64,000 nt of DNA, taken from positions 1,856,001-1,920,000 of the forward strand of contig CAXXGO010000006.1 of the NCBI GenBank assembly GCA_963666835.2, read 5' to 3'. The DNA is from Phycisphaerae bacterium (GTDB lineage Bacteria; Planctomycetota; Phycisphaerae; UBA1845). Under the pieces are notes generated by a model. That model was not told where the DNA came from, did no database searches, and saw only the letters and a program-made list of their open reading frames with translations. Below, one piece after another: positions 4,078-20,205 of the stretch (positions are counted from its first letter, which is position 1; the number at the start of each line of letters is the position of its first letter). Made by a program: the position numbers and the translations under genes.

Positions 4078-7000
4078 CTACGGGCAGGGGGACTCGCATT
4101 GTACGCCCCAGTAGTCCTGACCTTGGAAGGACAGGACCGCCCATTGGATATCAGTCATGTTGATGACCCCGTCGAGCGTACACCCGGCTTGATCCGTAGC
4201 TTCCATAGTGGCGTGACTGGTATCGCCCTGGAAAGCCAGGGTGAGGATCTGGATGTCGGCGATGTTGACGATCAGATTGTGATCGATGTCGGCCCACAGC
4301 CAGGTAGTCACGGAACGCGCCGGTGACAGGATCGGTGCACCGGGCGCACCGTAATCACCTTGCACGCTGTACCGGGTACCGGGACCGATCTCGGCGCCAC
4401 TAACCAGGATGGTATTCCATCCGGCGGGACCGTCCGGCATGAGGAACACCGGAGAATCGTCCAGCGTGCCATCCTCTTGCACGTACTGCGACAGGCACGC
4501 CACGGCGGGATCCCTTGAATCTCCGGTCACCAGCAGGGCGACGGGATCCGGACCGACCTGAGGTTGGACGCTCAAGTACCGCGCCCCATGGACGTTTACG
4601 GTCAGAGTGGCGCACGGGGGGAAGCTCGGCGGATCGCCGGATGTCCACCGGTTCTTAAGTTCACCCCAATCCTTGCAGTCCACGTCGCTATCGCCATCGA
4701 AGTTGACGCACCGGCATCCCTCCCCGACTCCGCCGCCGGGTCCGGAGAAGCAACTCCAGAGCACGGCGAGATCGTCCTCATCGGTGTCGCCGTCCGCGTC
4801 ACAGTCGCCCAGCGCAACACATTCGCCGGCTTCCGACAGATCACTCTCCATGAAGTCCGCGGATAACCCATCGCCGGTTGAAATGCCGACGATGCCGTCC
4901 TCGGCGGCAATCGCCAGACGGGTAAGCTGAATGAGCCCGTCAAAGAACATCTCGATCTGGAACGTGTTCTGGTTACTGGTGTTGTACTCGGGGACGTTTT
5001 GCCAGGTGACCACGACGCGATCGGCGAGCTGTTGCCATCGCACTGACCCTCCCTCTCCGGGGTCCAGATCGTCGAACAGGCCGGCGATTCGGGGTTTGCT
5101 GAAGTGGTTGGTTAGCGATTCGAGGTGCTCGTCGTCGCCGCTGCCGAAGGTAACGTATCCGTTAGTGCCGACGTAGAATGTGTCGTAGTCCGTACCGTAG
5201 AATGGCAGCGTTACGCCTCCGGTCAGGGCAATTGTGCTATAGTTGTCGTCGTCGTTGCTGGAATCCCAGGTCACGGTCGTTCCGCCCGAAGGATCAGTCG
5301 GCAGTGAGGTGACGTCGGTCTCGATACAGGACTGATAATGATCGAACGACCCGTTGGGCGCGAAGCTGAGGGTCACGTACTCGATGTCATTATCACTGTC
5401 GAATTCCTCGGTGAAGAAGTCGGGGATGTCCGGTGTTGTGAAGTTGTAACAAGCACCGCCATTGTCGTCGGATGCGCTGTTGCCCGCCACATCGACCACA
5501 TCGATAGAGAAGAAGTACGTCCGGTTGTCCTCCAGCCCCGTGAGCAGATACTCGTGGTAGGACTTGTGACCATAACCAACCTTCGTTTCGGTCAGCGCGG
5601 AACAAGTTGTGCCATAATGCAGGGTGGACGAGGTGTCCTCGTTTGTTTGGAACGTGACCTTGGCACTGCGCGGCTCAAGATCCGTTGTCTGTACGAAGTA
5701 GACGTTCGGAGGGTCGCAATCCACCACGCCGGTCGCTTCGTTGACCACATCGAAGTTGCCGAAGCCATCGTCAGCGTCGACGTAAGTAACCGTGATGGTG
5801 TCGCCGTTGGTGATCTGCAGAGTACCGACCGCATCGGTCTCGCTCATCACAATACTGCCGCGAAACGCCGCAGTCTCCGCGGAGGTCTCGGTCAAGGTGA
5901 CCACCTCGCCGGCCGGCTCGGTTTCCGAGACGATAGTCACTTCGATGGTCTCGATTACACCGTTGTCGGTGTTCAGATCGCAGTCCACCACCTGGATGTC
6001 GGCTACGCTCTCGCACGCGTACTTCTTGCTGTCCATCGAAACCACGCCTACCGTCGAGCAATTCACCAGCATGGGGGAAGCGGCCACCGAGAATACTTGT
6101 GGTCCCTCGGGTACGTTGAAGCCGTGAACTTCGACTTGCCAGGCACCGGTCTGCGGCGCCTCGACGAACACTTGCTCGATATTATTCACGTGGTCGGCCG
6201 CCGTACGCACCGCGGCGTTACTGGGGTTGGCCGGATCGAGCGTCCATGGATAGTGCCGCCCGCCGGACGGGTCGAATACCACCAAGTCCAGGTCGTTGAC
6301 CAGAGCCGGGTTGACGTTTGCCGTGCCCGGGTAGTCATCCCAGGCCAACGTGATCTTCAGTTGCTCGCCCGCCGTGACTACGACCAGCATCGAATACACT
6401 TCGCCCTGGCTGATCTCGTCCTCAAGGAAGTTGCCGGTACGCATGAAGTCTACCGCGGCCTTGGCTCGTACCGATCCGTAACCGGCGCGATAGTCGGGCC
6501 CTACCGTATCGAGATCCTCGCAAGTGTGGGTCAACAACGCCTTGAGCGTGGACCCGCGGAAGTCCGGCTCGCCAGGGAACTGGGTTCGGAAGTCCTGTAG
6601 CAGTAAAGCGCTGATACCGGCCACGGTCGGGGCGGCCATGGACGTTCCGGATTTGCCGGTGTAGGCCGTATCGCTCGAACTCGAACAGGAGGTCACGTCG
6701 TAGTCACCGTCACTCTGGCTACCGGGGCCGGCCAGGTCCGGCTTGATCCGCCCGTCATCAGTCGGACCCCAGCTTGTGAAATCGGTCTGGGAGTCGTCGT
6801 TGGAGTTAAGGGCCCCGACGGTAATGTGGTTCTTGGCACACGCGGGGGGGGGCGGTCGAATGGTAGCCGTTATCATGCTCCCCGGGGCAACCGGTGCAGC
6901 TTCGCTCGTTGCCGTTGGCCCAGACTATTCGGAACGGATCACCCAGGCTCCCGCCGACGATGGCGTCGATAAGAGCCGCGGTTACGCCGTAGTCTCCGGT

Positions 7001-8098
7001 GATCGAACAGGGGAAGCCGTTCCAGCAGGTGTTCGTGCCGATCGAGTTGTTGGATATGTCGGCCCCGTACGTGTTGATGGCTTCATCGTAGTCATCTTCC
7101 ATGTCGCCGGGGTTACTGTAGAGGAATATGCCCGATCCGTCATAGTCGAAACCGTAGGATTCGATCGTCACGCCCGGGGCCATTCCCCGGTATTGGCCGG
7201 AGCTGGCCGCCCCGCTGCCGCCTACGGTGCAGGCTACGTGAGTTGAATGGTCGCTCGTTCCGGACGAGTCGCGGACGGTCAAGCGACCACCGAAGTCAAC
7301 GTGGGTTTGCCGGGCGTCACCGCCGTCGTAGACCAGCACCGTAACGCCGGATCCGTCCAGTCCGTACGGCGGCTCGTTGACAATGTCGACTCCGGTCCGG
7401 TCCCGGTTGCTGTCGTTGACCTCGCTCATTCGTGGCAGGGCCGGCTCGATCCACATCACGCCGTCTTCGTCGGCCAGGGTCGGGATTTTCTCCAGCGGGA
7501 GCTCGATGACCAGTCCGTTGATACTCTCTAAGTGCGAGCGGATCACCGCTCCGTGCTTAACGGCCAAGCCGGCTCCGCGGGAGGCGAGAGGGACGTCGCG
7601 ATGAAAGAGAACATACGTGCCGACGATTGTCGGCTCGTCCTTGCCTTCGGGCTCGGCGGCGGAAACCACGGCCCAGGTCGGTACCTCTCGGTCGGCCAGG
7701 ATCGGGTGCAATTTCCACGTTTGCTCGATCGTCCGGGCGTCGACCAGAGACTCTGCCCGTGCGAGGACTGCGGAATCTACGCCATCTGAGCCGACGGCAG
7801 CGAAGTAGGCGTTATTACCCAGGTAATCGAGCAAGCGTACGCCGGCATCCGCCAGCTCCACCCGCAGCGCGTCGTCAACCGGGGCACTGAACTGGACAAC
7901 CACGTGGTTGCCCTCCGCGCCCGACGTTTTCCGGCTGAGGACGTCGGCGATCTCCGCCGAGGTTCTGGTTGGCGCCTCCATTGCTCCGGTCCGCCAGTCG
8001 ATACGATTGGCCGCCTGAGCGACACTGCCGATCACCAACGTGACCGTCATTGCCAAGGCACAAGTAATCTGCAGGTGAGTAGTACGATTCTTTAGCAT
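4078..8098 (-). pseudogene. Secreted S8 (subtilisin-like) peptidase with P-domain/FN3-like/nidogen-like and dockerin-like modules, split by a +1 frameshift in a G9 tract (may be intact in vivo)
   Basis: N-terminal ORF has a signal peptide, catalytic D (VLVYDGG), H (DHSTHVACT) and oxyanion N (WANGNE). C-terminal ORF has AKNHITVGA, IKPDLAGPG, SGTSMAAP and GDCDADGD dockerin-like motifs. Removing one C from the 9-C run at 6844-6852 restores HSTAPPACAKN. Confidence 0.88.
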
Positions 8099-8505
8099 GA
8101 CAAACCTTCCCGAAAAACCAAGGCATGACCAGAGGTTTGGACTGTTTCGCAAGAGCCACGTTTGACTCTGCCGCCGGAGGAGTGCCACGAGGTCAGGCAC
8201 TGCGCCGGATCCCGTGATCCCAGCTATGGCCCGCAAGCTACACAACTGCCGAAACCGTGCGGTTCTGCTTGCGCGGTCCACGGTACGGCTGCGGCTTGCC
8301 TTCCAGCTCCCTCCTCCCACTGATCCTCCACAAGGAACCCACTTACCTTAAGTTTACCGGGCGACGTGGTCGTTTACAACGAAGAAACCACTGGACACTC
8401 GGCAGCGGCGCTGTAAGTTCTTAGTGAGCGGCCCGGCTCCACTCGACGATGCCCGGGAATAATACGCCCCCGGCCGTTTGTCTTTTTTTGTAAGGCGATT
8501 CAATA

Positions 8506-8985: not shown

Positions 8986-10890
8986 CTAAATTCGGCGAGT
9001 TCTTCGCCGCAGAAGCCCAAGCCCGAGCCCGATGGCCAGGAGCGTCACCATCCCGATACCTCCGCAACCGATCTGTTCGATGAACCGCGTAAGGGCTTCC
9101 ACCTCGATGATGCCATCGAGCTTGGGATCCGAGGCTTCTACGTCTTCGATGATGGTGATACGATCATCAAAGGGCCGGGCGGTTGTATCGCTGGAACTCA
9201 CCGTTGCCTCAAGCGCCGTGTAACTGCCCCGCGAGCCCGAGCGAAGCCCCACGGCTGCAATCTGGGTTTCGGCCGTATTGCCGGTACTTGCCGGCTCGGT
9301 ATTGGCTGGAGCGGTTGAGGACAGGTTGGGTACGCCGACGAAGCCGTCTCCGTCGATGTCGAAACCCGGCATCCGCCAGGCATAGAGGATTGCCCAGATC
9401 CGCTTGTCCGGAATAAATTCCGTAGTACTCGGCGGTCGGAGCACGTCCTGCCAGCCCAGCCCAATACCGCGGCCGGCGTAGTGACGGTAATCGACACTGT
9501 TGAACCTGTTCTGGAGGTACTCCAGGGTTTGCTGAACGAACAGGTTCGTCTCTTCGTCGTTCGGGTCCAGGCGGAAGAACTGGCTCGGCGGCTGAGTGGC
9601 TTCATCGCTGGGGTCGATGATAATCGACCAGTTGCGTACGTCGGTGGTCCGCCACAGACCGTTACCGTCCCAATCGGCCCCGAGAAGGTCTTCGATTACG
9701 GATTCAGGGGCGACATCCTCACCGAGCAAGTCCGAGCGAAACAGGCGGAGCAAGTCGCTGACGTTCTCCGGGTTGTCGATGCCTTCATAGTCGAGGACTC
9801 CCGGTCCGTCACTGCTTACCAGGTCATTACCCATGTCCATGCCGTTGCCCAGGCCGTCCAGGTCGATGTCGGGGTTGTCCTCGGCTCCGAAACGGATGAT
9901 GAAATCGCTGGTATTGCCGAACGAGCGCGGGTTTATCAAAGGTTCGAGGTCTTCGCTGTCGGAGCTGCTATCTCCGTCGGTATCGGGATTCGTCGGATCG
10001 GTGAAGATGAAGCCGTCGAAATCGTGAAGCATCGTGAACTCGTTGGGAACGTAAGCTCCGTCATCTTCGCGGGTGTTATCTAGGGGGTACTCTCCGGGGC
10101 TGGGCAGTCCGTCGCTGTTCGTGTCCTGCCACTCATCCCGGTCCAAGAGGCCGTTGCCGTCCTCGTCGATAAACGCCAAACCGAAGACCTCTATGTAGTC
10201 GCTAAGCCCGTCGCCGTCGGAGTCCCACATGAATGCGTTGGTGGCGACCGCCCGGCGGGTGAAGATCGGAGTAGGCGGCGTGCCCGGGATGATTGCCGAC
10301 GGAGCCGGGAAGAACACGACCCGATCGTTCGTGTCGTCTTCGGCGATACCGCCCAGCTCCCAGTTGTCCGGCAGACCATCGCCATCGGTATCCGGCGAGT
10401 TGTCCGGCAACCCGTCCCCGTCGATGTCGAGCCGGCTCAGAATGCTGGCAACCGCCAGGTTGTCCGTGGAATTGTCTTGACTGTCCGCCAGCCGGTCGGC
10501 GGTGATCTCGACGAACACCTCCGCCGTTGCCACGGATTCCGAACCGTCGACCACGCCGACCTCGAATTCCGCGGTTCCCACCGCGTCGCTGGGCGCCGTG
10601 TAGCGGAAGGTAACTGACAAGTCTTCGGCACTAGACAAAATGACCGTTCGTTGTTCGAAGAAGCCGCCGGACACTCCGTTGATGTCGGTTATGGTGACGG
10701 TGTATGGCTCCACTCCGCCGCTTACTTCGACGGTGATGTCGATCGACTCGGCGACCGTGACGGCAAGGCCGTCCTCGCCACTCAATCGAACGGCCAGTTC
10801 GTCGTTTCCATTGGACTGGCTGTGGACGGCTGACTGAGTCAGCAATAACAACCCGATGGAAACGACCGCTATGGTGGTGCGAAGGCTCAT
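8986..10890 (-). CDS. Secreted acidic protein with DxDGDG(L)xD Ca-binding (thrombospondin type-3-like) repeats and a C-terminal membrane anchor/sorting signal
   Basis: GGAGG RBS, signal peptide, Ig-like N-domain, repeated DIDGDGLPD/DTDGDGLPD/DSDGDGLSD, C-terminus GCGG-hydrophobic-RRRTRR. Confidence 0.8.
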   Translation of the reverse strand: MSLRTTIAVVSIGLLLLTQSAVHSQSNGNDELAVRLSGEDGLAVTVAESIDITVEVSGGVEPYTVTITDINGVSGGFFEQRTVILSSAEDLSVTFRYTAPSDAVGTAEFEVGVVDGSESVATAEVFVEITADRLADSQDNSTDNLAVASILSRLDIDGDGLPDNSPDTDGDGLPDNWELGGIAEDDTNDRVVFFPAPSAIIPGTPPTPIFTRRAVATNAFMWDSDGDGLSDYIEVFGLAFIDEDGNGLLDRDEWQDTNSDGLPSPGEYPLDNTREDDGAYVPNEFTMLHDFDGFIFTDPTNPDTDGDSSSDSEDLEPLINPRSFGNTSDFIIRFGAEDNPDIDLDGLGNGMDMGNDLVSSDGPGVLDYEGIDNPENVSDLLRLFRSDLLGEDVAPESVIEDLLGADWDGNGLWRTTDVRNWSIIIDPSDEATQPPSQFFRLDPNDEETNLFVQQTLEYLQNRFNSVDYRHYAGRGIGLGWQDVLRPPSTTEFIPDKRIWAILYAWRMPGFDIDGDGFVGVPNLSSTAPANTEPASTGNTAETQIAAVGLRSGSRGSYTALEATVSSSDTTARPFDDRITIIEDVEASDPKLDGIIEVEALTRFIEQIGCGGIGMVTLLAIGLGLGLLRRRTRRI

Positions 10891-11165
10891 TGATAGGTTT
10901 CCTCCCGCGTTAGCAAGCCCGATTTCTAAAGGACTCGACCGACCGGTCATTACAAGTGTAGTCGATAGGCGATCTTATAACGTCATTGCCGGGTATTAGT
11001 CAACCGCCGGGCGGTTGCCTCACCAGGTTTACGGGGCCGGGACTGGCTATGCCGGTGCGGTGGTCTATCAAACACCGGCGGCGGCAACCGCAGTTACCGC
11101 CGCCGGGCCAAGGAGCTTCGGGGGATTGTCGCTCCCATGTTCAAGCAATGTCCGCCCTCCGGCGG

Positions 11166-14100
11166 CTAATCATCAATACAGATGCCGCTGTCGCAGTGGC
11201 ACGCCGGAGTGCCGGCGCAGGTCAGGCACCCTGTTCCGTCTACGAGCGGGGACCAGTCCTCCTGATCGAGACCACTGTTGCACTCCTCGCAGTCATTGGC
11301 CGGGTTTAAGTCGCCGTCGGTGTAGCATACTACGCCGATCGAGCACATTCCGGCATCGATGGAGTGGTCGCACTCGTCGTTCACCTCGTCGCAGGTGTCC
11401 GTTGTGCAATCCAGAGTGTCGGCACAATCTCTCGTGGTGCCGCCGCCGCATATCCCGGCCGTGCACTCCTGGTTTACCATACAGAACTCGGTGTCGCACG
11501 GCGTCGTGTCCGCGGCATGGTTGTCAAGGCACAGACCGAACCCGTCGCAACTGTCGGGATCCGTGCAGTCATCGTCGGTCGGATCACCGCAGGGCGTGCC
11601 GGCCGCCAAGTCCGGGTGAGTGCAGACCGCCGCCGCACACAGATCGTCCGTACAGTCGTTGCCTTCGTCCGGGCAGGCGGTGCCGTCGGGCTCGTTGTTT
11701 GCCAGGCATACTCCGGCGCCGTCGCAGGTATCGGGGTTATCACAATCGGAGTCGGTCGGGTCACCGCAGGACGTGCCGGCCGCCAAGTCCGGGTGAGTGC
11801 AGACCGCCGCCGCACACAGATCGTCCGTACAGTCGTTGCCTTCGTCCGGGCAGGCGGTGCCGTCGGGCTCGTTGTTTGCCAGGCATACTCCGGCGCCGTC
11901 GCAGGTATCGGGGTCATCACAATCGGAGTCGGTCGGGTCACCGCAGGACGTGCCGGCCGCCAAGTCCGGGTGAGTGCAGACCGCCGCCGCACACAGATCG
12001 TCCGTACAGTCGTTGCCTTCGTCCGGGCAGGCGGTGCCGTCGGGCTCGTTGTTTGCCAGGCATACTCCGGCCCCGTCGCAGGTATCGGGGTCATCACAAT
12101 CGGAGTCGGTCGGGTCACCGCAGGACGTGCCGGCCGCCAAGTCCGGGTGAGTGCAGACCGCCGCCGCACACAGATCGTCCGTACAGTCGTTGCCTTCGTC
12201 CGGGCAGGCGGTGCCGTCGGGCTCGTTGTTTGCCAGGCATACTCCGGCGCCGTCGCAGGTATCGGGGTCATCACAATCGGAGTCCGTCGGGTCACCGCAG
12301 GACGTGCCGGCCGCCAAGTCCGGATGCGTGCAGACCGCCGCCGCACATAGATCGTCCGTGCAGTCGTTGCCTTCGTCCGGGCAGGCGGTGCCGTCGGGCT
12401 CGTTGTTTGCCAGGCATACTCCGGCCCCGTCGCAGGTATCGGGGTTATCACAATCGGAGTCCGTCGGGTCACCGCAAGCCGTTCCGGAAGCCTCGTAATT
12501 GGACGCGCAGATGCCTGCCCCGTTGCAGGTGTCGGGGTTGTCGCAATCCGAATCGACGATGCTACCGCAGAGGGTCCCTGAGGCCTCGTGGTTATCCAGG
12601 CAGACCCCGTGTCCGTTGCACGTGTCCGGGTTTGTGCAAACGGTATTGTCCTGATCGCCGCACAACGTGCCGACCACAGAATGCGGATGCACACAATTAC
12701 CGGCTAGGCACACGTCATCCGTGCAGTCGTTGGTATCCGGTGTGCAGGCGGTTCCGTTTGCCTCGTGGTTGCCCAGGCACACCCCGGCGCCGTCGCAGGT
12801 ATCAGCAGCCGTGCAATCCGTGATGCTGGAGTCGCCGCAGAGATCACCGAAAGACGCGAAGTTGTCCATACATACACCCGCTCCGTTACACGTGTCCGCC
12901 GGGTTGCACGTGGTGTCGGTCGGATCCCCGCACGCAGTTCCGGGCGGATGATTCGGGTGGGTGCATACCGCGTTTGAGCAGACGTCGTTGGTGCAGTCGT
13001 TTCCGTCGTCGCTACAAGGGGCACCGTTCGCAACGGGGTTATTCTGGCACACACCGAGACTGTTGCAGGTGTTGGCCGCATCGCACTCTCCGCTCGACTG
13101 ATCGCCGCACGGAGTGCCCGCCGGCATGTACGGATGATCGCAGGAACCTGCGGCGCACACGTCATCCGTGCAATCGTTACCGTCGCCCGAGCAGGGAGTG
13201 TCGTCGGCTGCGTGGTTATCCAGGCATACACCTGCGCCGTTACAGGTATCCGGATTGGTGCATACAGTGTTGGTCTGATCACCGCAGGATGTTCCGATCG
13301 GGGAATTCGGATGATTGCATACGCCGGCGGCGCACACATCGTTCGTACAATCGTTCGTATCGGCGGTGCAGATCGTACCATCTGCCTCGTGGTTATCCAG
13401 GCACGATCCGGCTCCATCGCAGGTGTCAGGATCCGTGCAATCGTCATCTGTCAGGTCACCGCACGGAGTGCCACTCGTTTCGTGGTTCGCCAAGCAAACC
13501 CCGACGCCGTCGCACGTATCCGGATCCGTACACTCGTCGTCGATACCGGAGCCGCATGGTGTGTTGGCGGGTAGGTTCTGATGGTCGCATACCCCTGCAA
13601 GGCACAGATCATCCGTGCAGTCATTACTATCGTCCGGGCAACTTGTACCGTCCGGCGCATGGTTGGGCACGCAGACCCCGCCGTCGCACGTGTCAGGATC
13701 CGTGCAGGCGTCATCAAGTGGACTACCGCATGACGTACCGGCTGCTGCGTGGTTATCCAGGCATACCCCCGCGCCGTTACACGTATCCGGATTGGTACAC
13801 ACGGTGTTGGTCTGATCGCCGCAGGATGTTCCGATCGGGGAGTTCGGATGAACACACGTGCCGGCATCGCACACATCTACCGTGCATTCGTTCCCATCAT
13901 CGGTGCAACCCGTACCGTCCGCCTCGTGGTTATCCAGGCATGTTCCGGCTCCGTCACAGGTGTCGGGATCCGTGCAATCTCCATTATCCGAGTTACCGCA
14001 CGAGAAGCCGGCAGCTTCGTGATTAGCCAGGCAGACCCCGGCGCCATCGCACTTGTCGGGATTCGTACAGTCGTCATCCACGGTGCTGCCGCACGGATCA

Positions 14101-16151
14101 CCTGCGGGCAGATAGTCGTTATTGCACACTCCAAACGTGCAGGTGTCAGGACCGGTGCAATCGTTGCCGTCTTGGCAGGTGGCTGGGTCGGTAGTCCGGA
14201 TCTCGTACTCGACTTCCGCTCGACTGCCTCCGCTTTCTTCGACGATCACCTTGATCTTACGCGGAAGAGCTTGGGTTTCCGACGGTGTATACCGGCGCTG
14301 GTTCGTGGGCAGCCCTATCTGGTCCAGCTTGTCGTCCGAAGGGCCTACCCCCACAAATGCGAACGTGTAAGTGTTGATCCCCGAACCGCCAACGGTGGTA
14401 GCGGTCAGAATCGCCTGTTCCGGGGCGATTCCATCGCTGAGGCACAGCATGGGATGGTCGGCTGAGACCGCCAAGCTCACGGTACCTCCTCCGCTTCCAC
14501 CGTGCGAGGACGAGATGTTAATGCTCAACGAGCTGGAGCCCTCCGCACCGGTAGCGTCCGTGACCCGCACTACAATAGCATCCGATCCCGCTCCCGCGGG
14601 CGCGGAGTAATTGCGCAGAACCTGAACGTCTTCGAGTCCGTCCTCGTCGAGGTTACCCACACCACAGTCGCACTTGGTGAAGCCCTCGAGGAACTCGTCG
14701 TCGGCGTCCGGGGTGCAATCGGACTCGCGCGTCGCGAGACGACCCAGCCCGGTGCCATCGCGGAAGCCGTAGCACACCGTGTACGGCGGGGTCCCTCCGG
14801 AGATGTTGGCAGATAACTCTGTTATAGTATTCGGCTGAATCGCCGGACTGGCGCTGGACAGCTCAACGTCCAGCCGTTTCGGGGCGGCGACCGTCAAGGA
14901 TACGACTGAAGTCGCCACGTCTCCAACGCTATCCTGGACGCGAACCGTGATGCTGTCGGTGCCGGTGTCGTCGGCCGGGGCGGTGTAGGTCCGTTCCGGA
15001 GCGTCGTCGCCGGCCTCCTGGCAAGAGCAGTTGTCGTAGCCGGTCATCGGTTCGCAGGCGGAGTTTCTGCTCAATGCCGCCGTCGCGAGAGTCCCGCCTT
15101 CTACCAGGGTGTCGGCATCTCCCTTTTTGAAACAAACTGTATACGGCGGGGTGCCGCCGGCTACTTCCGCAGCGATGGTTGTGGTCCGTCTGGGAGCGAC
15201 CGTCAGATCCGAACTGAACGCCGACAGCCGAAGCTCGTCCTCCGAGCGCACGACAATCGGGATCGAGGTCGAATCGCGGTTTCCGGCCGCGTCCAGAACG
15301 GTCACTCTTATAGTGACGTTGCCGGTTTCGACCGGAGCGTGATAGGTCGAACGTGCTACGGTAACCCCGTCCTCCTCTGTCAACGGTTCGGCCGTGAATG
15401 ATGTTCCCTGAACACCCTCTACCGCCCAGAACACGCAATAAGGACTGCCGTTGCCCTCCGGGGCGACCACATCCAGACCGGCAAAGCTGGCCGGGGCCGC
15501 ACACTCCGTCGAGCTCTCCGCCGAAAACGGGCTTCCACCGGAGATCGCGGCCTCCAGGGTGATCTCCTCACCGGGGACAATCGTGCTCTTTGCCTCTGCG
15601 GTCGAGCCGGTAAGGGTCAAGGGTGCCTCGGGGCGGACGATCGTCAGAGTTATCGTCGACTCGCCACCTTCTGTCCTAGCCTCTGGGTCAGTAGCCTGTA
15701 CAGTCACGTTGACCTTGGTGCCGTCGACCCCAGGGTCGGTCAAGACCTCGTCGATGGTCAGAACGCTCGTTTGGGTCGGCTCGGTATCATCCGGAAAAGT
15801 GATGTCCAACTGGGCTTGCGGAACCTCGGGCGCGCCTGGTTTGGCCGCGAACCCCGTTTCGTCATTGTGATCCCAGTCCGCAGTTGCCACGGACCAAGTG
15901 AAGATGGCGTCTCTGGTGGTGGCGGCGCTGATACTGACCTTGCCAGTCTTGGCGTCGCCTCGGACCAGTACGGTTCGATCGGACGAGAGAAACACCGTTA
16001 TCGGGGGCAAAGGTCGCGGCCCGGGCTCTTCCCAGTCGTCAGCCGGTTCGTCCGGCACCACTAGTTGAGTTTCATAACACCCCGGCTGCAGCAGCAGCAA
16101 TCCCGACGCGAGCAGGATCCCGACCAGCAGGGTCGACTTGATAGAACTCAT
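11166..16151 (-). CDS. Giant (1661 aa) lipoprotein with Ig/PKD-like domains (GGTPPYT motifs) and a ~1000-aa Cys-rich repeat region (CxDGNxCTxDxC, Dictyostelium CTDC-like)
   Basis: GGAGG RBS before ATG 16151; lipobox-like LLLQPG-C; repeated GGTPPYTVC; dozens of C..D.N.CT.D.C..G.C units. Confidence 0.85.
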   Translation of the reverse strand: MSSIKSTLLVGILLASGLLLLQPGCYETQLVVPDEPADDWEEPGPRPLPPITVFLSSDRTVLVRGDAKTGKVSISAATTRDAIFTWSVATADWDHNDETGFAAKPGAPEVPQAQLDITFPDDTEPTQTSVLTIDEVLTDPGVDGTKVNVTVQATDPEARTEGGESTITLTIVRPEAPLTLTGSTAEAKSTIVPGEEITLEAAISGGSPFSAESSTECAAPASFAGLDVVAPEGNGSPYCVFWAVEGVQGTSFTAEPLTEEDGVTVARSTYHAPVETGNVTIRVTVLDAAGNRDSTSIPIVVRSEDELRLSAFSSDLTVAPRRTTTIAAEVAGGTPPYTVCFKKGDADTLVEGGTLATAALSRNSACEPMTGYDNCSCQEAGDDAPERTYTAPADDTGTDSITVRVQDSVGDVATSVVSLTVAAPKRLDVELSSASPAIQPNTITELSANISGGTPPYTVCYGFRDGTGLGRLATRESDCTPDADDEFLEGFTKCDCGVGNLDEDGLEDVQVLRNYSAPAGAGSDAIVVRVTDATGAEGSSSLSINISSSHGGSGGGTVSLAVSADHPMLCLSDGIAPEQAILTATTVGGSGINTYTFAFVGVGPSDDKLDQIGLPTNQRRYTPSETQALPRKIKVIVEESGGSRAEVEYEIRTTDPATCQDGNDCTGPDTCTFGVCNNDYLPAGDPCGSTVDDDCTNPDKCDGAGVCLANHEAAGFSCGNSDNGDCTDPDTCDGAGTCLDNHEADGTGCTDDGNECTVDVCDAGTCVHPNSPIGTSCGDQTNTVCTNPDTCNGAGVCLDNHAAAGTSCGSPLDDACTDPDTCDGGVCVPNHAPDGTSCPDDSNDCTDDLCLAGVCDHQNLPANTPCGSGIDDECTDPDTCDGVGVCLANHETSGTPCGDLTDDDCTDPDTCDGAGSCLDNHEADGTICTADTNDCTNDVCAAGVCNHPNSPIGTSCGDQTNTVCTNPDTCNGAGVCLDNHAADDTPCSGDGNDCTDDVCAAGSCDHPYMPAGTPCGDQSSGECDAANTCNSLGVCQNNPVANGAPCSDDGNDCTNDVCSNAVCTHPNHPPGTACGDPTDTTCNPADTCNGAGVCMDNFASFGDLCGDSSITDCTAADTCDGAGVCLGNHEANGTACTPDTNDCTDDVCLAGNCVHPHSVVGTLCGDQDNTVCTNPDTCNGHGVCLDNHEASGTLCGSIVDSDCDNPDTCNGAGICASNYEASGTACGDPTDSDCDNPDTCDGAGVCLANNEPDGTACPDEGNDCTDDLCAAAVCTHPDLAAGTSCGDPTDSDCDDPDTCDGAGVCLANNEPDGTACPDEGNDCTDDLCAAAVCTHPDLAAGTSCGDPTDSDCDDPDTCDGAGVCLANNEPDGTACPDEGNDCTDDLCAAAVCTHPDLAAGTSCGDPTDSDCDDPDTCDGAGVCLANNEPDGTACPDEGNDCTDDLCAAAVCTHPDLAAGTSCGDPTDSDCDNPDTCDGAGVCLANNEPDGTACPDEGNDCTDDLCAAAVCTHPDLAAGTPCGDPTDDDCTDPDSCDGFGLCLDNHAADTTPCDTEFCMVNQECTAGICGGGTTRDCADTLDCTTDTCDEVNDECDHSIDAGMCSIGVVCYTDGDLNPANDCEECNSGLDQEDWSPLVDGTGCLTCAGTPACHCDSGICIDD
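11585..12478 (-). repeat. Five near-identical in-frame 177-bp (59-aa) tandem repeats within the Cys-rich lipoprotein
   Basis: agatcgtccgtacagtcgtt recurs at 11641, 11818, 11995 and 12172, with a variant at 12349; unit CGDPTDSDCD[DN]PDTCDGAGVCLANNEPDGTACPDEGNDCTDDLCAAAVCTHPDLAAGTS. Confidence 0.95.
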
Positions 16152-16267
16152 CTCGGCAAACCTCCCCTTCACTACCGCGAAGCGCAGTTTCGATTACTTA
16201 CGTATCAGCCGGCATCCTTGCTAGTACGGATGTTCGCCGCGATGTCCTACCGACGGCGAATGCGAGG

Positions 16268-17302
16268 CTATTGCCCCGCTAGACGAATGAGCAGCTCGGC
16301 GTTTGGATTAATCATGAGCCCGCCGGTCCCGGGATTCCCTATAATAATCGAGCGTCGGAATCTCTGTCCGGCAATAACCGAACCGGGAACGGTCGATTCG
16401 AGCAGCCCCTGGGCCGGGCTGACCACCGCCCGCAACGAAGTCACGGGAGCGCCCAGCGTGCTGGTCACGGCCAGCAACTGCTGTGGCTGGTCAAAGGTCT
16501 GTGGAGCATTGAAATCCGCCCCGACCAATTCTATCGCGGCCCGGCCTTCGCCCGCCCGCACGGGGGTAAAGTCCCCGCTTTCCGCCCGCTCTACCCATCG
16601 GGTGCTCTGGGTCAGACCAAAGGCATAGACGCTTCGCTGCATAAGAGCCGACAACTCAGCCACCGCGTCGTCGTCACCAGGGGCAACCGTTGCCGGGGCG
16701 GCAGTTGAAATACTCTGTCCCGCAGCAAGTTGCACCCGACCCGCCACGGCGTCCGGGCGCGTGTTCGACAAATCGCCGGGAACAAAAGACGCGGTCCCTC
16801 GTTCAACCGTAAACGTTACCACGCCTTCTTGGGCGACGATGTGGACGATCCCCTCCGTGATGGCGACGCTGCCGACCGCTCCGCCGTTTTTGCCAACCAC
16901 GGCCAGAGACTCTGCCTCCCGGTTCTTCCGGGCGGCGGTAACTCGGCCACGCACGACTTTCAGGACGCAACTGTTGGGGGCCAACCACTCCGGAGCAGGG
17001 TCAAACCGGATCTCGGACGACGTTTGAAGGTGCACCGATGCTCCGGAATCGGGAAGGACGACGACGGCCGTACCGTCCTTTGCGGTGGCTAGAGCCTGGC
17101 CGACGCTGAGGCCATTCTCTTCTGGATGGAAAGACGTGGGACTGACTCGCGACGGCTCACCCGCACCGACGCGCAGGGCTCCGCCGCCGGTAACGACGGT
17201 GGCAAACGCGACCGGATCCGCAGATTGGGCCCGAGTGAGTGCTCCTCCCACGCTGATTATAACGGAAACGAGAACCAGATTGCCAAACCCTCGAACGATC
17301 AT
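16268..17302 (-). CDS. Exported FecR-like domain protein
   Basis: Signal peptide; pattern T-AKDGTAVVVLPDSGASVHLQTSSEIRF...LKVVRGRV...TFTVERGTA...LAAGQ matches FecR beta-domains. Confidence 0.65.
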   Translation of the reverse strand: MIVRGFGNLVLVSVIISVGGALTRAQSADPVAFATVVTGGGALRVGAGEPSRVSPTSFHPEENGLSVGQALATAKDGTAVVVLPDSGASVHLQTSSEIRFDPAPEWLAPNSCVLKVVRGRVTAARKNREAESLAVVGKNGGAVGSVAITEGIVHIVAQEGVVTFTVERGTASFVPGDLSNTRPDAVAGRVQLAAGQSISTAAPATVAPGDDDAVAELSALMQRSVYAFGLTQSTRWVERAESGDFTPVRAGEGRAAIELVGADFNAPQTFDQPQQLLAVTSTLGAPVTSLRAVVSPAQGLLESTVPGSVIAGQRFRRSIIIGNPGTGGLMINPNAELLIRLAGQ

Positions 17303-17323
17303 CAATCACCTCGATCGCGCGAA

Positions 17324-19663
17324 CTAGTTGAACTCGAAACCCACGGTAATGCCGTAAACCATCCGATCATACTCGAATATGGTCTGACCCATCTGGTCGA
17401 CCACGTTACTGTCGTCGTCCGTCCATCTGGCGTGGAGCCGGATCGACATTACCGACCTGTCAAACTGCGGGGTGTACCGATTGGCCAGTTCCCCCTCCCG
17501 CAAGACGAAAGTTCGTGACAGGACGAGCCCGTACTCTTGAACAAAATCACGCCGGGGCCGCCGGTGGAAGTCGATCAGACTTCCATGAGAATACTCGCCC
17601 CATTCAAATGACGCGGTCGCGTCCAGCTCCAACCCCCACGGCAAGGGTACTTCCACACCTGCTCCGAACTCGTAGGCAGTGCGGTCGAACTCGTCTCCCT
17701 TGGTGGCGTCCCACGAATACCGTAGCCCCACCCAGGGCGTCAGGTACCGTTTCGGGTAATCCGCATCCTCCTGACGCAACCCTTCGTCGCCGGAGTACCC
17801 CCACGGCTCGAGCCCGTGCCGGTGATAGAACTCCGCCAAGTCGACGCTCTTGTGCCGATGGGTCAATCCGAAAGCCGGATAGCAACCATCCCGATTGTAG
17901 CGTTCATCGTACAGGTCTTCTCGATAATCTCTGATGTCATAAGAGAAATAAAGGTCCGTTTCCGCGTGGCGGTCCGCCCAGAACACCCTTACGCTGGGGC
18001 GGATAACCTGCGACTCCAAGAAACCGGATCGTCCGAGAAGCGTGTAGTCGTAATCGTACTGCAACGACAGGTAGATGGGTCCGAAATCTCCCGTCTTGCG
18101 GCGGGCTTCGTACTGTAATGCCACCGCTCCACCGTAGGTTTGCAGGTCATACTCGTCCACGTCGGCATGCCACAATTGCGACATCCGCCCCTGGAGACCG
18201 AACGTGAGACGTTCGGTGAGGTCCTTGGTGTAGTCCACGGCTGTTGTCTGGTAGAAACCGAAGTCCTTTCGACGCGAGATGTCGCGCGGCATGTCCGTGC
18301 GCTCTCCGAGCAACACTACATTCGTATCGCGGTGAAATCCGCTGATTAATGACAAGCGCACGTCATTCATCGGCGGCACCACGGCCGTGGTCTGCCGACG
18401 CAGACCCGCAATCTCCTTACGCTGCCGGGCAACCAGATACGGAATGACCTCGCAGCTATGCGAACCCGGATTGCTCTGTTCGTCCGCCGCGGGCCGCACG
18501 TCCAGGCGGGCGGCCATCTGCAGATACTTCTCCGCCTCATCCAATAACTGCGAACGTTTTGCAGGGACCGCCTCCGCCGAGGCTTGGAACGGGTAGATCA
18601 GCCCGAGGTACAGAGCCGCGTAACTGCGCCACGTGCGCTCCGTCGCGGGATCATCTACCAGCTCCGTCATGAGGGCCTGTGCCTCAGCCAGTTGCCGGCG
18701 CCCCGTCGAACTCACCGCGGCCCCTTCGCTCGGTGCCCGTACGGGTACCGCTTGACGGAACAAAATGACGCCCCGGAAGAACTTGGCCCGCGTTGCCTGA
18801 TCGCCGGCCAGTCCCTCATCGAGCATCGTCTTGAGGATCCCGGTGGCGCGGGCCAGACTTCGAGACGCTTGGCTTCGGAGGGCCTTCACCGGTCCGGGGG
18901 CCTCTTCGCGATCGTAGTCTCCTGCGACGATATCCCGGGCATTGGTCTCGTCGATTCGGGCGATCTTGGCGTTGGCCACTACCTCAAGTAGGCGAAGCAC
19001 GGCATCGGGATGTTCCAAGATGCCTACCAGGTGCTGCAAGTCCGCCGCCATCTTGCGATAGTGGTCTTGCTCCTGTGCAGCGGCTTCATGGGCCTGCTCC
19101 AACGCACTTATGCGCAACTCGATCAGTTCTTCGATTGAGAGCTCGGCGCGGCGCTTGAGGGCATACTCTTGCCTCTTCAGACCGTTCAACATGGCCTGGG
19201 CTACGATAGTCTCCGCGGCGGCGTCCGCTCCGGTTGACGACTCCCGGAGTTCCCGGAGCTTCAGCCGGAGCTGTTCGATTTCCTCGCCGGCCGACTTCTC
19301 TTCCCCCTCGGCGGACCGAGTCTCGATAGCCTGGGCGCAGGCCAGCGCGGAACTCTCGGCACTTTGCTTCGCGCGCAGTTCAATCAACCCCAGTTCGCCA
19401 TAAGTCAATGCTCGGAACAGGCGGGCGGTTTTGTGGTCGGGCTCTCTGTCAATGACCGAAGTGAACAGCTTCTCAGCCTGCGTAAGTCGCGCGGCATCGC
19501 CCGGACCCATTGCCTCCAGGTCGCCTTGGCCGTCCAGGAAGCAATAGATCCCCTCGTTCAGGTCTACGAGCACATCGGCCGACGGACCTTCCTGGGCCGA
19601 GGACGTTGCAGTGAGACTCCAGACCACCAGCAAGACAGGCACAGCCAGGCAGCTTCGATCCAT
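17324..19663 (-). CDS. TPR-repeat plus C-terminal outer-membrane beta-barrel protein (Slam/DUF560-like)
   Basis: Signal peptide; TPR-like helices (ARLFRALTYGELG, AKFFRGVILF, AALYLGLIY); barrel begins LSLISGFHRDTNV; Tyr-rich alternating strands; ends YGITVGFEFN (beta-signal-like). Confidence 0.7.
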   Translation of the reverse strand: MDRSCLAVPVLLVVWSLTATSSAQEGPSADVLVDLNEGIYCFLDGQGDLEAMGPGDAARLTQAEKLFTSVIDREPDHKTARLFRALTYGELGLIELRAKQSAESSALACAQAIETRSAEGEEKSAGEEIEQLRLKLRELRESSTGADAAAETIVAQAMLNGLKRQEYALKRRAELSIEELIELRISALEQAHEAAAQEQDHYRKMAADLQHLVGILEHPDAVLRLLEVVANAKIARIDETNARDIVAGDYDREEAPGPVKALRSQASRSLARATGILKTMLDEGLAGDQATRAKFFRGVILFRQAVPVRAPSEGAAVSSTGRRQLAEAQALMTELVDDPATERTWRSYAALYLGLIYPFQASAEAVPAKRSQLLDEAEKYLQMAARLDVRPAADEQSNPGSHSCEVIPYLVARQRKEIAGLRRQTTAVVPPMNDVRLSLISGFHRDTNVVLLGERTDMPRDISRRKDFGFYQTTAVDYTKDLTERLTFGLQGRMSQLWHADVDEYDLQTYGGAVALQYEARRKTGDFGPIYLSLQYDYDYTLLGRSGFLESQVIRPSVRVFWADRHAETDLYFSYDIRDYREDLYDERYNRDGCYPAFGLTHRHKSVDLAEFYHRHGLEPWGYSGDEGLRQEDADYPKRYLTPWVGLRYSWDATKGDEFDRTAYEFGAGVEVPLPWGLELDATASFEWGEYSHGSLIDFHRRPRRDFVQEYGLVLSRTFVLREGELANRYTPQFDRSVMSIRLHARWTDDDSNVVDQMGQTIFEYDRMVYGITVGFEFN

Positions 19664-19780
19664 CGTTAGGTAACCCTCGCGCTAACTTCACCGGAGGGGT
19701 CTCCGGCTTCGTTGCGACCTCCAAACGTGAGCAGTCTGCAATACCCGAACCCACGAGCCCGCATGTCAAGCGGCGCGACT

Positions 19781-19990
19781 CTAGCTGCCTTCTTCGACGC
19801 CGGGCTCCTGGTCCGCCGCGATGATGGCGCTTTCCAGCATACTGGCCAGGGTGGTCACCGTGGTCCGAATGATAGTCGAGGTGGCGAAGTCCTTGAACTG
19901 CAAGGTCGTGATGCCGCAGGGCCCGCTGAGCAAGCAGCCGCTGGCCAGCAAGATCCCAAGACAACCGCGACGCCATCGGGCGTTCCTCAT
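19781..19990 (-). CDS. Small (69 aa) exported/lipoprotein-like protein
   Basis: MRNARWRRGCLGILLASGCLLSGPCG...: basic N-terminus, hydrophobic core, Cys, amphipathic helix; purine-rich sequence upstream. Confidence 0.6.
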   Translation of the reverse strand: MRNARWRRGCLGILLASGCLLSGPCGITTLQFKDFATSTIIRTTVTTLASMLESAIIAADQEPGVEEGS

Positions 19991-20043
19991 ATCGCTTCCC
20001 TTTCCCTGCCAACGCCATGACACGACCGGCGCGGCACTTTCAA

Positions 20044-20205
20044 CTACACGGATGCCGCCAGATTCTGCAGCAGAAAAATGGCCAGATCTGAACCCGACGA
20101 AAGAACCGCGCGAAGCCCAATGTCCGGATCAATGATGCACCCCTGAAAAGTGCAAGCACTCAGGATACATCCCCACTGGAGTATTCGATAGTAACGTGTC
20201 CTCAT
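20044..20205 (-). CDS. Small (53 aa) exported/lipoprotein-like protein
   Basis: MRTRYYRILQWGCILSACTFQGCIIDPD...: same architecture as the neighbouring small ORF and co-oriented with it. Confidence 0.55.
   Translation of the reverse strand: MRTRYYRILQWGCILSACTFQGCIIDPDIGLRAVLSSGSDLAIFLLQNLAASV

Follow-up and report, generated by a model that had tools for sequence, protein, structure and literature searches.

A conserved operon encoding two micro-lipoproteins, a predicted TPR-barrel protein and a FecR-like protein accompanies the type VI secretion system in an order of Phycisphaerae

RESULTS

Gene organization of the locus

The window (the whole 64,000-nucleotide stretch analyzed, G000:C6:1856001-1920000, where G000 is this genome of a Phycisphaerae bacterium) carries a cluster of six co-oriented genes on the minus strand. 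[quoted passage not shown] In the direction of transcription the genes are as follows:

20044..20205, minus strand: micro-lipoprotein 1, 53 amino acids (aa); predicted mature part of 31 aa from Cys23, one amphipathic helix
19781..19990, minus strand: micro-lipoprotein 2, 69 aa; predicted mature part of 45 aa from Cys25, one amphipathic helix
17324..19663, minus strand: TPR/helical domain and predicted 14-strand outer-membrane barrel with Slam-like architecture, 779 aa
16268..17302, minus strand: predicted exported FecR-fold protein, beta domain at about residues 30-210 and conserved C-terminal tail, 344 aa
11166..16151, minus strand: large predicted lipoprotein with N-terminal Ig/PKD-like repeats and a swappable Cys-rich C-terminal region, 1661 aa
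8986..10890, minus strand: TSP3-type Ca-binding-repeat protein with a Cys-CTERM-like tail, 634 aa (654 aa from the first ATG at 10950)

All six open reading frames (ORFs) were found at these positions in the window, and with the listed starts the gaps of 53, 117, 21, 116 and 275 bp reported in a first-pass annotation of the DNA were reproduced. Export signals had been noted on all six products, and basic-hydrophobic leaders were recognized by eye. Lipidation and surface location of the operon proteins are predictions. Scans of the window proteins against Pfam and NCBIfam yielded weak Ig and TSP3 matches and nothing for DUF560, FecR or TPR. Neither collection puts a name to the barrel, to the FecR-like protein or to the micro-proteins; these labels rest on structural models and on relatives. 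A search of a plasmid collection gave no match.

Conservation of the operon

A barrel ortholog was detected at E 1e-40 in 96 of the 279 genomes of the order. Synteny was confirmed across these relatives within the one order; as the barrel is so widely present and the gene order is kept, the cluster is not a chance arrangement. Of the 95 loci other than that of the window, 93 were fetched, and the fragments G631 and G760 were excluded. Where the upstream DNA sufficed (82 loci), profile hidden Markov models (HMMs) recovered both micro-genes in 73; they also recovered the FecR-like gene in 70 of 82 loci and the TSP3/Cys-CTERM domain in 41 of 53. When ten loci with HMM misses were inspected, the genes were visible by eye in G602, G627, G582, G522 and G591, and not in G678, G765 and G592. 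No large surface protein was recognized in G501 by the profiles used. The constant core of the operon is micro-1, micro-2, the barrel and the FecR-like protein, which does not support the first-pass view of the FecR protein and the micro-proteins as accessories of the giant lipoprotein.

In a class-wide sample, barrel orthologs were confined to the order. A GTDB scan returned 48 loci, all titled Phycisphaerae, Planctomycetota or a related label, with one titled 'uncultured bacterium'. Weaker barrel paralogs occurred in 4 of 215 genomes outside the order, each followed by a protein of 680-900 aa, one of these with a weak FecR match. Two loci of family f5, in which TssC is missing (L035:8051-10144 and L036:8367-10472), showed the core followed by a small lipoprotein and a protein of about 700 aa without a Pfam match. 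We take the motifs of the latter to recall a CHAT domain; similar motifs end some of the pseudokinases described below.

Linkage to a pseudokinase and to the T6SS

A protein of 1500-2600 aa with a kinase-like head adjoined micro-1 in 40 of 62 loci, co-oriented in 27 and divergent in 13. The DFG motif of the head was kept in 33 of 38 copies. The HRD motif was replaced by HGG, HGA, HAG or HGS in 37 of 38 copies, the remaining one being unread, so that the catalytic Asp is lost. Most of the long copies (31 of 36) had a single hydrophobic segment, and 4 of 38 pseudokinases carried a second kinase domain of the HRD type. An FGE-sulfatase domain ended one copy (L039) and no other copy scanned.

The genome of the window contains two pseudokinase copies, and because one of them adjoins a T6SS cluster the order was surveyed for the T6SS sheath protein TssC. 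TssC was present in 100 and the pseudokinase head in 98 of the 279 genomes. Barrel and TssC occurred together in 86 genomes, the barrel alone in 10, TssC alone in 14 and neither in 169. For head and TssC the counts were 94 genomes with both, 4 with the head only, 6 with TssC only and 175 with neither. Within the genera g297 (5 of 7 genomes), g454 (2 of 5) and g37 (3 of 4), barrel, head and TssC were carried by the same genomes. All 16 TssC-positive genomes of the order in the class sample also had a barrel ortholog. Outside the order TssC was found in 21 of 215 genomes, none of which gave a barrel match. The link between barrel and T6SS is specific to this order and, as these 21 genomes indicate, a T6SS can dispense with the barrel.

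The distance between the barrel gene and tssC was determined for 82 of the 86 double-positive genomes from the best TssC matches listed. Both genes lay on one contig in 26 genomes, within 30 kb of each other in 19 (at 19-23 kb in 18). In seven genomes, including that of the window (244 kb), both blocks were retained at distances of 57 kb to 2.6 Mb. G017 and G564 had the gene order T6SS cluster, pseudokinase, micro-1, micro-2 and barrel.

Such an arrangement could also arise by hitch-hiking, if operon and T6SS shared a genomic island and were gained or lost jointly without a functional link. The 19 of 26 same-contig cases within 30 kb fit this explanation, as does family f5 with its core and no TssC. 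It accounts poorly for the seven genomes in which both blocks were retained far apart, for the 13 loci in which pseudokinase adjacency survived inversion, and for barrels that are still linked although identity between clades has fallen to about 25-30%. We give hitch-hiking alone the slimmest chance.

Composition of the T6SS cluster

The T6SS cluster encoded TssK, DotU, a 1590-aa IcmF-N protein, TagF, TssA, TssB, TssC, Hcp, TssE, TssF, TssG, ClpV, VgrG and PAAR, and a lipoprotein without annotation at the position of TssJ. The operon could have been a replacement for a missing TssJLM complex, as known from Bacteroidota, a possibility raised by the detection of IcmF_C in one of the 279 genomes and ruled out by DotU, the IcmF-related_N proteins and the lipoprotein at the TssJ position. 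As the cluster has its own TssL and TssM, the operon is a T6SS accessory and not a replacement membrane complex.

The cluster in the genome of the window (G000:C6:2100734-2134500) is complete; its TssM has IcmF-N and no IcmF_C match, and its TssJ-position lipoprotein has no Pfam match. With IcmF_C in a single genome of 279, the T6SS membrane complex of the order looks divergent. Many genomes of the order also contain a second sheath gene, in which TssB and TssC domains are fused in a protein of about 605 aa (L241:2602-4428 and L245:2355-4166).

The TPR-barrel protein

The AlphaFold2 model of the 779-aa protein, built with 102 homologs, had a mean pLDDT of 94.6, with values above 90 in nearly all blocks. 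It comprised helices from residue 29 to 423 and 14 strands from 433 to 778, which bears out the TPR-plus-barrel layout and the approximately 14-strand barrel expected in the first-pass annotation. The front half of the model and the family profile matched TPR structures, and relatives matched TPR families. The best structural matches of the barrel were 14-strand channels, CymA with Z 23.3, root mean square deviation (rmsd) 3.9 and 291 aligned residues, and OmpG with Z 19.2, rmsd 3.0 and 236 aligned residues. No Slam entry was among the fold matches listed, an absence that excludes nothing. When solved structures were searched by sequence, using profiles of the barrel and of the FecR-like protein, nothing informative was returned.

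Slam proteins consist of TPR and a predicted 14-stranded DUF560 barrel and have been described from Proteobacteria (PMC5449769, PMC8406197). The first-pass annotation had compared the 779-aa protein with this group, and the comparison stood by architecture and failed by HMM. Among language-model neighbours of residues 425-779 in the Atlas, one unnamed cluster and the nearest named clusters, SlipAM/DUF560, scored 0.95-0.96. By contrast, the window protein had no match to PF04575 (DUF560) at E 0.1. Among the relatives scanned, 0 of 29 matched at E 0.05, and a precomputed match existed for 1 of 98 others. A PF04575 search of genomes gave no barrel match, and no control matched either. Named homologs are annotated as 'hypothetical' or as TPR proteins. 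The modelled protein is therefore predicted to be built like a Slam, whereas membership in the Slam family is not borne out by HMM.

As many conserved residues on the barrel strands are polar, a conserved ligand in the barrel lumen is suggested. Covariation was calculated from 73 paired rows (MI-APC, mutual information with average product correction); 4 of the top 60 intra-barrel pairs fell on adjacent strands against a background of 3.4%, in an analysis whose positive control failed.

A paralogous locus lies elsewhere in the same genome (G000:C1:1249698-1256754) and encodes a TPR-barrel, a 738-aa FecR-headed protein with a basic tail and a 661-aa lipoprotein, without micro-genes. G036 carries the same paralogous locus adjoining its second pseudokinase gene. 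In the TssC-positive genome G021 (C169:27748-28338), a 228-aa open frame beside a pseudokinase gene matched the barrel N-terminus only and is possibly a truncated operon.

The micro-lipoproteins

Both micro-proteins consist of a leader, a Cys and an amphipathic helix of 31-47 residues. The Cys after the leader was present throughout both alignments (18 of 18 and 19 of 19 sequences), and near-clade mean identities were 0.62 for micro-1, 0.57 for micro-2 and 0.59 for the barrel. Neither had a family match in Pfam or NCBIfam, and the micro-2 profile gave three weak matches besides this genome when searched against 301 genomes of the phylum. More ORFs of similar type, with a leader and a short helix, were seen in G000 at C3:488093-488251, C1:1126132-1126738, C1:1782522-1782728 and C6:61900-62118.

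The micro-lipoproteins might themselves be the exported product and polymerize via the barrel to form a fibre or coat; the FecR-fold protein would then serve as its adaptor, and the large protein would be an adhesin at the tip. Their genes come first in the operon, as in pilus operons, and the products are amphipathic, as conserved as the barrel and present in most loci. On the other hand, they match no known family, the paralogous barrels have no micro-genes, and similar micro-lipoproteins are encoded away from any barrel match. A fibre or coat is highly improbable on this evidence.

The FecR-fold protein

The 344-aa protein was modelled with a confident beta domain, for which Foldseek found PupR and BDI_1681 with E values from 2e-5 to 1e-4; the FecR domain of the first-pass annotation was thereby recovered as a predicted fold. 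A weak PF04773 match occurred in 5 of 16 relatives. In 16 aligned proteins only a short leader preceded the domain. The periplasmic beta domain is shared with the anti-sigma regulators FecR and PupR, whereas their cytoplasmic anti-sigma domain and anchor were not present. The C-terminal tail, modelled with low confidence, was better conserved in the near clade than the domain itself (identity 0.47 versus 0.30).

No extracytoplasmic function (ECF) sigma factor or TonB-dependent transducer was found among the scanned ORFs flanking the operon in the window; the flanks in relatives were checked by eye only. The earlier suggestion that the FecR protein probably does not play its classical signalling role, made because no ECF sigma factor or TonB receptor is adjacent, is weakened by the linked transmembrane pseudokinase.

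FecR-domain and TPR proteins are known to cluster with CHASE2 adenylate cyclases in Campylobacterota without a sigma factor (PMC9239204), and NsrA of Sinorhizobium meliloti has been reported as a signal-perceiving barrel (PMC7529298). The present operon resembles these in combining a FecR-domain protein and a TPR-barrel with a putative membrane signalling protein, with no ECF sigma factor seen beside it, although its partner is a pseudokinase and a T6SS rather than a cyclase. By analogy, the barrel could act purely as a receptor and export nothing: a small ligand or peptide would be perceived and relayed via the FecR-fold protein, other routes would carry the surface proteins outward, and the T6SS would not have to be the output. 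In keeping with this, the solved structures nearest to the barrel are 14-strand channels, either plugged or open, and the paralogs outside the order likewise precede a FecR-headed protein (with one weak FecR match). No cyclase or sigma factor was seen beside the operon, however, and neither the surface domain downstream in 41 of 53 loci nor the tight T6SS co-occurrence is explained, so we regard a pure receptor as rather improbable.

The large surface proteins

Of the 149 Cys in the 1661-aa lipoprotein, 137 lie beyond residue 655, and the last 1000 residues of the protein are Cys-rich repeats. Near-identical tandem units of 177 bp (59 aa) at 11584-12417 of the window are a likely site of length variation. 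Across loci the N-terminal Ig-like repeats of the large lipoproteins were kept, and the C-terminal part was exchanged between different repeat types (DUF4215, PKD, Calx-beta, SprB-like and Ig), which would fit a variable adhesin. The type of large protein varied between loci, with a Cys-CTERM protein in place of a lipoprotein in one clade.

In the 634-aa protein, TSP3-type repeats are followed by a C-terminal Cys, a hydrophobic segment and an Arg cluster. Identity to near relatives was 55-58%, and all seven near and all six far homologs had the same tail pattern. The genome encodes three proteins with a Cys-CTERM-like tail. The curated CTERM models of NCBIfam gave no match; the cognate sortase was not searched for. 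In a distant clade a single protein of 1600-2600 aa joins Ig repeats, a TSP3 region and the same type of tail; its TSP3 region was weakly similar to the 634-aa protein (4 of 6 at E below 1e-6). The best Atlas match of the TSP3 protein scored 0.85 and is a lead only. Cell-cell recognition in myxobacteria by TraA/TraB and MYXO-CTERM proteins likewise involves Cys-rich and TSP3 repeats, a barrel and a C-terminal sorting signal with a Cys. Their domain arrangement and barrel type differ from those found here, and NCBIfam matches to CglD/MtsC were weak, repeat-level and far below cut-off.

The giant lipoprotein had been proposed as the defining cargo of the system, which was not upheld, as the protein is variable and optional. 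The hallmark of Slam cargo is a C-terminal 8-stranded TbpB-type barrel (PMC5449769; 10.1101/2024.09.26.615229), and 0 of 20 large downstream proteins matched this family in Pfam, in a test of sequence only. Marine cluster-3 type XI secretion systems (T11SS) are described as mostly lacking this cargo barrel (10.1101/2024.09.26.615229).

A stand-alone type XI-like exporter would flip the giant lipoprotein to the surface without signalling, the T6SS link being incidental. It draws on the Slam-like architecture and on the large predicted lipoprotein gene downstream in the near clade, as Slams adjoin the genes of their lipoprotein cargo (PMC5449769). The lack of a TbpB-type family match in the 20 large proteins and the persistence of the core without a large protein speak against it, and it leaves the co-occurrence and physical linkage with the T6SS unexplained. 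We consider a stand-alone exporter unlikely.

Outside the operon, a subtilase gene (window 4078-8320, minus strand) is broken into two frames near 6844. The break, at which the contig of a related strain is one base shorter, may be peculiar to the strain or due to misassembly.

DISCUSSION

Comparison with known systems

With the Slam/DUF560 T11SS the operon shares N-terminal TPR, a predicted 14-strand barrel and a nearby large lipoprotein gene. It differs in lacking both the PF04575 match in the window protein and a match to the TbpB-type cargo barrel, in its constant pair of micro-lipoproteins and FecR-fold partner, and in its occurrence in Phycisphaerae with linkage to a T6SS.

A second parallel is offered by the TagQRST-PpkA(TagE)-Fha threonine phosphorylation pathway of the Pseudomonas H1-T6SS, since here too a predicted outer-membrane lipoprotein, a predicted periplasmic protein and a single-pass kinase-like protein are encoded with a TagF-bearing T6SS. 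TagR carries a domain of the FGE-sulfatase family. TagQRST has no barrel or adhesin, and unlike PpkA the pseudokinase head has lost its catalytic Asp in all 37 copies that could be read. TagQRST-PpkA directs T6SS assembly to sites of contact through a lipoprotein of the outer membrane, a periplasmic protein and a membrane kinase (PMC13584744). By means of TasL, a large lipoprotein of its T6SS2, Vibrio fischeri attaches to some of its targets (PMC9040878). Compared by description only, the large predicted lipoprotein resembles TasL in its association with a T6SS, whereas the available part of the TasL report mentions no dedicated barrel, FecR-fold protein or micro-lipoproteins (PMC9040878).

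Proposed function

We propose that the operon is a target-attachment and sensing module of the T6SS, analogous to TasL and TagQRST-PpkA and built from unrelated parts, with a probability of roughly 0.55. The adhesin-like surface proteins, a variable adhesin and an anchored Ca-binding protein, would grip the neighbouring cell. The barrel and the two lipidated helices would sit in the outer membrane, possibly exporting the large lipoprotein, and the FecR-fold protein may dock to the barrel by its tail. Slam-like barrel, micro-lipoproteins and FecR-fold partner would together pass a contact signal across the envelope, and the transmembrane pseudokinase could act as an inner-membrane relay or scaffold that places or licenses T6SS assembly. 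We infer the binding between the proteins, the docking of the tail, the barrel-dependent surfacing of the lipoprotein and the direction of the signal. In a more specific version, which we put forward tentatively and hold to be doubtful, target choice would lie with the swappable adhesins, contact would be relayed inward by a Slam-type barrel with the two lipidated micro-helices as its cap and the FecR tail as its plug, and the giant pseudokinase would drive T6SS assembly without phosphorylation.

Several observations weigh against a target-attachment and sensing module. The pseudokinase gene was not adjacent in 22 of 62 loci, nor is it adjacent in the window, whose operon lies 244 kb from tssC; barrel and tssC were on different contigs in 56 of 82 genomes. 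No FHA protein, phosphatase or TagS-TagT was found among the 32 cluster proteins scanned, a result obtained without a genome-wide search. The 21 TssC-positive genomes outside the order manage without a barrel match, as do the 14 of the order with TssC only. The barrel occurs without TssC in ten genomes, among them all four carriers of family f5, where the core stands without TssC or pseudokinase and a different gene follows. In G602, G582 and G687 no large surface protein follows the four-gene core. The co-occurrence counts were made over related, non-independent genomes without tree-aware correction, and gain or loss as a single island would yield part of the pattern.

The system is real, conserved and, as far as searched, undescribed, and appears to be a type of T6SS target-recognition accessory built from Slam-like and FecR-like parts. 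In agreement with the first-pass annotation, no system of this composition was found in the literature searched, which comprised few subscription papers; FecR neighbours could be listed in the supplementary data of T11SS co-occurrence studies. A 2026 review of T6SS accessory factors nowhere mentions 'barrel', 'FecR', 'adhesin' or 'Planctomyc'.

How a T6SS finds its target and fires at the site of contact is understood for few systems. If the proposal is true, a target-recognition module based on a barrel and equipped with a variable adhesin is added to these, Slam-type architecture acquires a new use outside Proteobacteria, and the many sigma-less FecR-domain proteins gain a testable role. It also puts a name to two conserved micro-lipoproteins of a kind that gene callers can miss. 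For the organisms themselves, uncultured planctomycetes about which little is known, it would suggest competition or predation that depends on contact.

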